From the NCBI RefSeq assembly GCF_030013205.1, contig NZ_CP122648.1: 64,000 nt of DNA. One strand, given 5' to 3'. A program made the translations under genes and the position numbers. The stretch is from Escherichia coli. Lineage in GTDB: Bacteria > Pseudomonadota > Gammaproteobacteria > Enterobacterales > Enterobacteriaceae. Below are positions 20,896 through 23,380 of the stretch, piece by piece (the stretch's first letter is position 1; each line of letters starts with the position of its first letter). Below the pieces are notes generated by a model. That model did no database searches. It was not told the origin of the DNA and was given only the letters and a program-made list of their open reading frames with translations.

Positions 20896-21363
20896 TTACG
20901 GATTCTCCTTATTCTTCCTTCTATCCATTCGCTTTAGCTTTAGCTTTTTGAGCTCTTGAAATTTGCTCTTTGCATCAATATTACCGTTATTTACAGCGAA
21001 TTCCATCCAATAAATAGCTTTATTCAAATTATAATATTCTGATAATATTGGATTTGTATCCGATAAAAAAACCCCATAATTAAACTGCGCTGTAACATTC
21101 CCCTGAGATGCTGATCTTTCTAAGTATTGCAATTGTTTGTAAATGTTATTTTTAGTAAAGCAGTAATATTGATATAGTCGAAATGATGCCTCTGAATCAC
21201 CATGTTGTGATTTATACTTCAGTTTCATCAACTTTTCTTCACTTAAATCATAGGTCATTGCTGTAGACCCCATCATACTTTCGTTTTGTTTTATTTTCAC
21301 ATCAGCACCATGCAATTGAAAAATAAAAGAGAAATAAAAAAATAGTAACAAGCATGCTTTCAT
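20896..21363 (-). CDS. putative Rhs immunity protein, secreted Sel1-like repeat protein
   Basis: 155-aa ORF starting 13 nt after the reconstructed stop of the rhsB toxin domain; N-terminal signal-peptide-like hydrophobic segment; Sel1-like repeat-rich sequence. Confidence 0.65.
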   Translation of the reverse strand: MKACLLLFFYFSFIFQLHGADVKIKQNESMMGSTAMTYDLSEEKLMKLKYKSQHGDSEASFRLYQYYCFTKNNIYKQLQYLERSASQGNVTAQFNYGVFLSDTNPILSEYYNLNKAIYWMEFAVNNGNIDAKSKFQELKKLKLKRMDRRKNKENP

Positions 21364-21493
21364 ACATCTACAACCTATCTTATATCACTGGGTTTTTCTG
21401 GCGTACCTTGCATATTAGAAATGGGGTGCCCAGATGGCCCATATGTTATCCAATTACCAAGGTCTTTTGTTGTTATAGGGTAATGACTCCAAC

Positions 21494-21997
21494 TTACTGA
21501 TAGTGTTTTATGTTCAGATAATGCCCGATGACCTTGTCATGCAGCTCCACCGATTTTGAGAACGACAGTGACTTCCGTCCCAGCCTTGCCAGATGTTGTC
21601 TCAGATTCAGGTTATGCCGCTCAATGCGCTGAGTATAACGCTTGCTGATAACGTGCAGCTTTCCCTTCAGGCGTGATTCATACAGCGGCCAGCCATCCGT
21701 CATCCATACCACGACCTCAAAGGCCGACAGCAGGCTCAGAAGACGCTCCAGTGTGGCCAGAGTGCGTTCACCGAAGACGTGCGCCACAACCGTCCTCCGC
21801 ATCCTGTCATACGCGTAAAACAGCCAGCGCTGACGTGATTTAGCACCGACGTAGCCCCACTGTTCGTCCATTTCAGCGCAGACAATCACATCACTGCCCG
21901 GTTGTATGCGCGAGGTTACCGACTGCGGCCTGAGTTTTTTAAGTGGCGGAAAATCGTGTTGAGGCCAACGCCAATAATGCGTGCACTGGCGCGACAT
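21494..21997 (-). CDS. insB: IS1 transposase InsB
   Basis: 167-aa ORF inside IS1, matches InsB as recalled. Confidence 0.92.
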
Positions 21998-22191
21998 CCG
22001 ACGCCATTCATGGCCATATCAATGATTTTCTGGTGCGTACCGGGCTGAGAGGCGGCGTAAGTGAACTGTAGTTGCCATGTTTTACGGCAGTGAGAGCAGA
22101 GATAGCGCTGATGTCCGGCGGTGCTTTTGCCGTTACGCACCACCCCGTCAGTAGCTGAACAGGAGGGACAGCTGATAGAAACAGAAGCCAC
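21916..22191 (-). CDS. insA: IS1 protein InsA
   Basis: 91-aa ORF with Cys-rich zinc-finger-like N-terminus (CPSCS...CSHC), matches InsA as recalled. Confidence 0.92.
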
Positions 22192-22219
22192 TGGAGCACC
22201 TCAAAAACACCATCATACA

Positions 22220-23380
22220 CTAAATCAGTAAGTTGGCAGCATCACCTGTTATAGCCATTAGATCCTTATTTGAATTAAGGTTCGTTGGTGCTGTTAGCAC
22301 TGTATCCATTTTTAACTTACCATTAGTTCCTCGCCCCCACCACGTCCATAGCGTGTCAGGTCCTATTACATTTGTATGTAACTCTTTAGCTAATTGGCTA
22401 GCAAATGAATTTTGTCCTTTACCTGTATTACAAGAAAATAACCAAACTGTCATCCCATCTTTATAATTCCCATCAAATTTAATTAGATATGCTAGATCTT
22501 TAGCTGTCATGATACTGCGCGTTGCGGATTCAATAGATGTGGGGGTACCATGCCCCCCGATTGTGAAAACGCCTGGGATATTAATCTCATCAGCTACAGA
22601 ATGGATAAGATCACTTTCGGGGTATAAATTTATATCAACCAAACCTTGCGGATCTACATTTATGACCGGATTCAACGGATACTGATAAAAATTCCATCCC
22701 CCCTTCAGCCCAATCGGATCCTGAGTGATATACCGCCCCTGCAGCGGGTCATAATAGCGGTGGCGGTTGTAATACAGGCCGGACTCCTCATCATACTGCT
22801 GACCCGGCAGGCGGATGAGCTGCTGCAGCTGGTGCGGGTTCTCTTCATTCAGCAGGTTGCCCCACTCATCGTATTCTGCGTACCACGCTGTTGCCCCTTC
22901 CGTGCTGACAAGCGCCAGCGGCAGGCCGCGATGGTCGCAGTGGTACAGGTGGATTTTTCGCGCCGGCGTGTACACCGGGTCCATCTGGTTTTGTATCTGC
23001 TCCACCGTCAGGCCGCACGATGCCAGCCAGCGGCGGCTTTCCTCACTCACCCGGTCAGCCAGGATTTCACTTTCCAGCCGGTCGAGCATCTGCACCAGCA
23101 CCGGCGGGAACACCATACTGCCACCGTCTTCACCGCCGGACTGCTGAAGGGCATCCGCCAGGCTGCGGCGCTGCGTTTTCGCCAGCTCACCGGTGGCGGT
23201 TTCGACCCTGATGAGTGGCGTGAAGCTCCCCGGCTGATAAACCGTCTGGATGCGGGTTCTGTCGTTCTGTATCGTGGTCAGCCGGTCGCCGTCCCAGCCG
23301 TACCAGGTCACTTCCGGTTTCCGTGACAGCGACATCCAGCCCGTCAGGTCCCGTTCACGCCGCCACACCCGTTTTGCCAC
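22220..23380 (-). pseudogene. rhsB: rhsB 3' portion: conserved core end (DPxGL motif) plus C-terminal toxin domain interrupted by IS1
   Basis: 386-aa frame with [13 protein letters not shown]...NVDPQGL then a variable C-terminal domain; the last 8 codons (GDAANLLI) are IS1-derived. Confidence 0.85.

Follow-up and report, generated by a model that had tools for sequence, protein, structure and literature searches.

An IS1-disrupted yibJ/yibG toxin-immunity module at the tip of an Escherichia coli Rhs element, with a predicted caspase-fold toxin domain and a putatively exported Sel1-repeat partner

The sequence analysed here is a 64,000-nt stretch of one Escherichia coli contig (NZ_CP122648.1, assembly GCF_030013205.1), called the window below, and all feature coordinates are positions in it. 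Between nikR and yhhJ, the rhsB locus, it carries an Rhs element, and the region under study is the 3' end of that element. The variable tip is the toxin-immunity module known as yibJ/yibG. The whole Rhs region is read on the minus strand. The Rhs gene, its tip and the immunity gene consist of the following parts.

23344..26364, minus strand: Rhs core, 5' reading frame of 1006 aa, ended prematurely by a frameshift (Pfam RHS_repeat E 4e-69 in 10 stretches; DUF6531 E 1.6e-18).
23385..23400, minus strand: approximate site (near 23397) of a 16-nt deletion, placed by a blastn gap at gene position ~2968 against the intact Rhs of strain 746.
22640..23380, minus strand: 3' part of the Rhs core, read in the shifted frame, up to the core/toxin boundary motif (Pfam RHS, PF03527, E 1e-16).
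22247..22639, minus strand: toxin domain, 5' fragment, residues 1 to ~131, holding the GGHG histidine H30 (22552-22550) and the SCNTG cysteine C70 (22432-22430).
21479..22246, minus strand: complete insertion sequence IS1 of 768 bp, with insA at 22191-21916 and insB' at 21997-21494 (Pfam DDE_Tnp_IS1 E 1e-74; further matches to Zn_ribbon_InsA and HTH_Tnp_IS1).
21375..21476, minus strand: toxin domain, 3' fragment, with the last 33 codons (…ITTKDLGNWITYGPSGHPISNMQGTPEKPSDIR) at 21476-21378 and the stop codon at 21377-21375.
20896..21363, minus strand: yibG, intact Sel1-repeat immunity gene of 155 aa (RefSeq: 'yibG: sel1 repeat family protein').

The elements on which the original prediction relied, namely DPQGL, GGHGTP, FSCNTGKG and the open reading frame of 155 aa, were all found on the minus strand. 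The gene has the architecture of an Rhs protein. The YD/RHS repeat shell is present (the 10 stretches of the first frame), and the core-terminating motif PxxxxDPxGL and a variable AT-rich C-terminal domain after it are both there. The second rhs reading frame spans 23380-22220. Within it the DPQGL boundary lies at 22654-22640, and the toxin domain begins with a valine at 22639. The GC content is 0.62 in the Rhs core, 0.39 in the toxin domain and 0.31 in yibG. At the N-terminus of the window Rhs, DUF6531 alone was detected, and no vgrG adjoins the gene within the window.

Direct reading of the sequence showed that IS1 is bounded by 23-bp inverted repeats (GGTAATGACTCCAACTTACTGAT / GGTGATGCTGCCAACTTACTGAT) and flanked by an 8-bp target duplication (TGTTATAG, at 21471-21478 and 22247-22254). 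It splits the toxin domain after residue ~131. When IS1 and one copy of the duplication were taken out, a domain of 162 aa ending in ...PSDIR* was obtained, which matches at 100% identity the C-terminus of an unbroken Rhs protein of 1409 aa from the canine strain 746. An intact open reading frame encoding the toxin was sought in the window rhs and was not found, owing to the 16-nt deletion frameshift and to IS1 inside the toxin domain. The toxin gene of the window thus carries two inactivating lesions, the core deletion and the IS1 within the toxin domain, and therefore no toxin can be made from it. Swine enterotoxigenic E. coli genomes such as K_EC180 match the window; there RefSeq records the frameshift, the IS1 and yibG just as they stand here, and labels the orthologous rhs of K_EC180 'frameshifted'. 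With a dead toxin and an intact yibG, the most that the locus can offer is protection against this toxin when other E. coli deliver it. Only the immunity half can function in the window, the same pattern of a retained orphan immunity gene as in K-12.

Other copies of the module have also been hit by IS1. In strain Ec-050 (locus L013) an independent IS1 of opposite orientation occupies a different site of the toxin domain; in strain G3/10 (L014) an independent IS1 lies within yibG itself; a third IS1-hit module was seen in EC0900, in a sample of 60 rows. In unrelated strains this AT-rich module (GC content 0.31-0.39) seems to draw IS1 insertions repeatedly.

The reconstructed toxin domain is identical to the orphan pseudogene yibJ of K-12, which lies at the rhsA locus behind rhsA-yibA, apart from an internal stop codon in K-12. 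The 155-aa protein is 97% identical to K-12 YibG. Beyond this pair, the array that runs from the toxin through yibG and the Rhs remnant, with its degraded L,D-peptidase-like piece, to the Imm57 gene aligns at 97.4% to K-12 yibJ-yibG-yibS/yibW-yibV, and the Rhs core of the window aligns at 95.9% to K-12 rhsA. From these two alignments the locus resembles an rhsA array of the K-12 type that lacks the main C-terminal domain and yibA and has the orphan fused to a full-length core. In K-12 the module is an orphan behind rhsA-yibA; in the window, by contrast, it was fused to a full-length core at nikR/yhhJ (rhsB) and then broken by IS1 and the 16-nt deletion. The expectation that the domain after DPQGL would be unlike the C-terminus of K-12 RhsB was borne out; the domain is of the yibJ type.

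The same module is RhsA/RhsAI of strain EDL933. K-12 yibJ/yibG and EDL933 RhsA (EDL933_4854)/RhsAI (z5018) have the same toxin sequence as the window copy, with one internal stop in K-12, and the same downstream array; the EDL933 primer rhsA2R matches the window at ~22536-22554. In the study of EDL933 (2020; PMC7216683), Sel1/TPR repeats were noted in RhsAI, and the RhsA tip was matched by I-TASSER to PDB 3HO6. Among complete E. coli genomes, 3507 of 5426 (~65%) contain the module, mostly as an orphan fragment; full-length Rhs proteins carry it as their tip in O157:H7, IAI1 and others. Three RefSeq records (H85, H105 and H107) name the orphan toxin fragment 'DUF8616 domain-containing protein', so a model for the domain exists, though the copies of Pfam and NCBIfam that were searched gave no significant match. 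The module is thus already annotated as yibJ/yibG and has already been discussed in silico (PMC7216683; PMC3482391): the class was catalogued in 2012, and the work of 2020 recorded both the Sel1 partner and the likeness to the TcdA protease domain. The original prediction had treated the pair as distinctive of the rhsB of this genome. This part does not hold, for the pair is the K-12 and EDL933 module. The gene is also non-functional in the window. What stands of it is the non-RhsB domain, the Sel1-like partner with a signal-like N-terminus, and the fit of the conserved Cys and His to a hydrolase. The window copy itself is an ordinary inactivated version of a module common in E. coli and matters little on its own; the interest lies in the family.

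The assignment of YibG to Sel1-like proteins was made from several comparisons. A phmmer search against the Sel1 proteins of the PDB gave E 1.2e-8, and Foldseek with the AlphaFold model found Sel1 proteins, among them PA5087, PA5088 and PA5086, which are immunity proteins; both searches agree with the earlier Sel1-like call. The Pfam Sel1 model stayed below threshold (18.9 bits against a cut-off of 30.7). In the AlphaFold model an N-terminal helix (residues 3-15) is followed by a disordered linker and by confident helical repeats (42-153). The product begins MKACLLLFFYFSFIFQLHG|AD, and residues 1-19 (21363-21307) resemble a signal peptide: MK, a hydrophobic core of 13 residues and then LHG|A, which by a hydropathy heuristic is Sec-signal-like. 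A lipoprotein reading based on Cys4 was rejected, as this cysteine is too near the N-terminus and there is no lipobox. The yibG ATG lies 11 nt past the toxin stop codon.

To see how constant this arrangement is, the neighbouring genes of toxin homologues were sampled at seven loci by exact-protein look-up. In six loci other than the window, Sel1-like genes alignable with YibG stand behind the toxin homologue: one in Salmonella (L004), one on a metagenome contig (L006), and four distant Rhs loci (L007, L008, L009 and L010, the gene of L008 being an uncalled open reading frame). With further enterobacterial YibG homologues added to the sampled loci, 10 of 11 immunity homologues have an N-terminal hydrophobic segment, where the Kyte-Doolittle mean over 11 residues is 2.3-3.6, against at most 1.8 elsewhere in those proteins; one of them has a lipobox, LAGC. 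The signal-like start ascribed to the 155-aa protein by the original prediction is thus kept in most of its relatives. From the conserved adjacency of the two genes we infer that YibG would bind and neutralise its cognate toxin. Two of the distant loci also carry genes of a secretion apparatus: the L007 toxin homologue lies behind VgrG, with a PAAR gene, and that of L009 lies behind VgrG, with DUF2169 and with a Tox-PAAR-like N-terminus on the Rhs protein itself.

Two of the sampled loci hold further modules. On the Salmonella enterica subsp. salamae contig (L004, 58-3876), orphan Rhs tips form a compact toxin-immunity array: first the caspase-like toxin and the Sel1 immunity gene that belongs to it, next a TseH-domain tip paired with Imm58, and last a PLA2G12-like tip. 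On the metagenome contig (L006, 1-2707), a full-length Rhs lies upstream of the orphan caspase-like tip, and behind this full-length Rhs come two small paralogues (135 and 147 aa) with signal-peptide-like N-termini and several conserved cysteines. These paralogues may be another exported immunity pair, for some other toxin tip.

For the toxin domain, family models and direct searches gave little. The reconstructed domain had no match in Pfam and NCBIfam even at E<=1, and phmmer against the PDB sequences found no match. An exhaustive HMMER search, in contrast, recovered 562 representative clusters at E<=1e-3 (clusters at 50% identity), and the members are mostly C-termini of Rhs proteins from diverse bacteria. 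In an alignment of 109 sequences C70 is invariant, and H30 and G31 are conserved to 90% or more; across 53 diverse sequences aligned over the domain alone, H30, G31, A50 and C70 are all invariant. The strands at 24-28 and 64-68 come before H30-G31 and C70. The domain matches clan CD structures (the caspase-haemoglobinase fold) in its alpha/beta fold, and its nearest structural neighbours are the cysteine protease domains (CPDs) and Tce1. Profile searches were less telling. Curated clan CD models gave weak matches only, in 4 (C80), 4 (DUF4347) and 1 (CHAT) of the 109 relatives; the domain-only profile A2 reached legumain among the PDB sequences at a marginal E 0.9; the profile of alignment A1 against the same sequences was swamped by the Rhs-core tail in the alignment; and a pattern search of genome contigs with alignment A3 gave 20 pattern matches, of which 0 were confirmed.

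A caspase-like class of toxin domains, Tox-Caspase, was described by Zhang et al. (2012; PMC3482391), who reported arrays of such domains, some copies inactive, in giant Streptomyces proteins. The present family shares with it the caspase-like alpha/beta fold, the conserved His and Cys and the position at proteobacterial Rhs C-termini, as well as the copy arrays in giant actinobacterial WXG proteins, in which some copies lack the catalytic residues. Among the giant proteins of our family (3-7 thousand residues), two to five internal copies were found in each; a Pfam scan, run on P0025 alone, showed an N-terminal WXG100-like domain in that protein, and His and Cys are lost in some internal copies, e.g. 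P0025 3114-3273 and P0043 1047-1208. Because these features fit the Tox-Caspase class, we conclude that the domain is a predicted clan CD-fold (caspase/CPD) Cys/His peptidase-like enzyme. The suggestion that the Cys and His could belong to a Cys/His hydrolase is consistent with this, since the conserved H30 and C70 suit the caspase/CPD fold. The likeness to Tox-Caspase is drawn by description, and the partners differ: those listed for Tox-Caspase are Imm36 and Imm57, whereas the yibJ-type partner is an exported Sel1-repeat protein. Three to five internal caspase-like copies were counted in P0025, P0028, P0029, P0031, P0033 and P0043, proteins of 3,100-6,800 aa.

The best reading of these data is that the domain acts in the periplasm as a clan CD protease toxin and is neutralised by an exported Sel1 protein; we give it a probability of roughly 0.62, judging from sequence and predicted structure. 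From an intact copy, the Rhs protein would be delivered by a type VI secretion system (T6SS) and would cleave itself after DPQGL, freeing a cysteine peptidase of ~160 aa with the clan CD (caspase/CPD) fold. Autocleavage after such a motif is known for other Rhs proteins. Through H30 and C70 the freed peptidase would then act on a periplasmic or envelope substrate of the recipient cell, either a protein or a peptide. Cells that make the toxin, or that are immune to it, would export YibG by means of its N-terminal signal sequence, and in the periplasm its Sel1 repeats would bind and block the toxin. Exported immunity proteins accompany the T6SS effectors that act in the periplasm (Tae/Tai, Tge/Tgi, Tle/Tli). 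From this rule and the conserved export signal we infer that a periplasmic or envelope target is the best supported, as the original prediction had reasoned from a secreted immunity protein; a signal or lipoprotein N-terminus in 10 of 11 homologues favours its premise.

For the exported YibG a parallel may be drawn with the periplasmic Sel1 immunity proteins PA5086-5088, which act against the phospholipase PldB. These Tli5b proteins (PA5086, PA5087 and PA5088) are, like YibG, Sel1-repeat immunity proteins for a T6SS effector. Structure 5jkp ranked second in the Foldseek search, 5jjo and 6lch were also found, and phmmer of YibG against 5jkp gave E 7e-4. They differ from YibG in countering a phospholipase D effector (PldB/Tle5b) and not a protease, in length (~260-270 aa against 155) and in sequence (identity 21-24%).

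Several points weigh against the proposal of an exported antidote to a periplasmic protease. The E. coli rhsA-D clade has no adjacent vgrG, and its delivery route is not established. In the literature on yibG, yibJ, DUF8616, Tox-Caspase and periplasmic cysteine-protease T6SS effectors, no experiment was found that addressed enzymatic activity, toxicity or localisation for the family. The remaining points bear on two other explanations, each of which we regard as unlikely. One is that the toxin is cytoplasmic and the hydrophobic N-terminus of YibG is no working export signal, either because translation starts at the internal GTG (V22) or because the segment is a membrane tether facing the cytoplasm. 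An older annotation of EDL933 z5018 indeed gives a protein of 132 aa from that GTG, leaving the signal out; the immunity homologue of L009 (7605-7955, MNVDPITGATRF..., genome GCA_016806145.1) has no hydrophobic N-terminus or signal sequence; and most characterised Rhs toxins are cytoplasmic nucleases, NADases and ADP-ribosyltransferases. The L009 gene may be truncated, or that lineage may handle the toxin differently. This explanation is disfavoured because the signal is conserved: 10 of the 11 homologues keep the signal-like N-terminus (MK or MR, then a hydrophobic core, and in one a lipobox) despite low identity, and in every locus the ATG that includes the signal lies 10-15 nt past the toxin stop codon. 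A cytoplasmic nuclease or deaminase together with a YibG lacking a signal peptide would have contradicted the original prediction; the N-terminus is signal-like, and no such family was matched.

The other, about equally improbable, is that the caspase-fold domain is not antibacterial at all and serves as an anti-eukaryotic effector or as a self-processing ('releasing') peptidase, like the cysteine protease domains of MARTX and TcdA or like Tce2. The closest solved relatives do point that way. The nearest structures are the CPDs, which are self-processing domains, and Tce1; Tce1 and Tce2 have no immunity genes, are non-toxic in E. coli and look anti-eukaryotic, Tce2 being toxic to yeast. The tandem internal copies in giant WXG100 proteins also resemble processing modules (PMC3482391). 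The relatives nevertheless differ from the yibJ-type domain. Tce1 of P. aeruginosa (PA0256, DUF4347; PDB 9qpe) has just 13% identity to it, and Tce1 and Tce2 are cargo of the H3-T6SS inside Hcp3 and not fused to Rhs. The Peptidase C80 CPDs of V. cholerae MARTX (3fzy) and C. difficile TcdA/TcdB (3ho6) are activated by InsP6 and process host-directed toxins, whereas the yibJ-type domain has a partner immunity protein and a bacterial context. Here the domain is the last C-terminal module of Rhs, and a homologous small Sel1 gene always comes after it, across Enterobacteriaceae and in distant Rhs loci. This immunity gene is conserved, and it is retained intact where the toxin is dead (in the window and in K-12), a signature of interbacterial toxin-immunity pairs, and for that reason the explanation is disfavoured. 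Still less probable is a Cys-dependent hydrolase of another superfamily (a nitrilase/C-N hydrolase-like amidase or an alpha/beta-hydrolase) that would act on peptidoglycan or lipid and not on protein; a nitrilase-like fold was tried and rejected, as the family is without a conserved Glu or Lys.

A bolder claim, which we hold at somewhat less than an even chance, is that YibJ-type domains are the first interbacterial toxins of the clan CD (caspase/CPD) fold to work in the periplasm, where they would cut a protein or peptide of the recipient's envelope and be checked by an exported Sel1 immunity protein. To our knowledge, the envelope-targeting T6SS toxins so far are amidases, glycoside hydrolases, lipases, pore formers and L,D-transpeptidase-like enzymes. 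If confirmed, the proposal would add a new enzymatic class to them and would assign a function to the K-12 y-gene yibG: as a widely distributed orphan, it would confer immunity to a protease toxin that about two thirds of E. coli carry. It might also explain why the related Tce proteins of P. aeruginosa are non-toxic when expressed in E. coli. With 562 clusters, Rhs effectors in many bacteria and a place outside the Pfam copy that was searched, the family is worth experiment.

Downstream of yibG the element ends in a displaced orphan module and a transposase remnant.

20278..20862, minus strand: displaced orphan, made up of a remnant of an Rhs core and, after it, a degraded toxin fragment that resembles L,D-peptidases (aligns to K-12 yibS/yibW).
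19875..20189, minus strand: Imm57-family immunity gene, yibV-like, partner of the orphan L,D-peptidase toxin (Pfam Imm57 E 6e-46, profile positions 1-100 of 100).
19141..19575, minus strand: truncated ISAs1/H-repeat transposase remnant, the end of the Rhs element (Pfam DDE_Tnp_1_assoc E 1.5e-34; RefSeq 'ISAs1 family transposase, incomplete').

In the displaced orphan, RefSeq annotates the Rhs remnant with an internal stop at 20644-20862, and the L,D-peptidase/Tlde1-like fragment (20278-20571) gave weak Pfam matches to Tlde1_dom (E 8.5e-4) and YkuD (E 7e-3). Imm57 was paired by Zhang et al. (2012; PMC3482391) with Tox-LD-peptidase and, in gamma-proteobacteria, with Tox-Caspase. Because Imm57 sits here two genes past the caspase-like toxin, its pairing with Tox-Caspase may simply mirror such an array.

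Minor observations were made elsewhere in the window by comparison with K_EC180 (locus L012). The gene coordinates of this strain are shifted by 1 nt relative to the window upstream of ~19000 (yhiI at 14064 against 14063) and are equal from the ISAs1 remnant onward. According to its annotation, two neighbouring paralogous DUF4049 genes (~530 and ~540 aa) lie at 10225-13698, upstream of yhiI, and an IS3-family element (IS1397-like) lies at 47100-48448, between livJ and panM.

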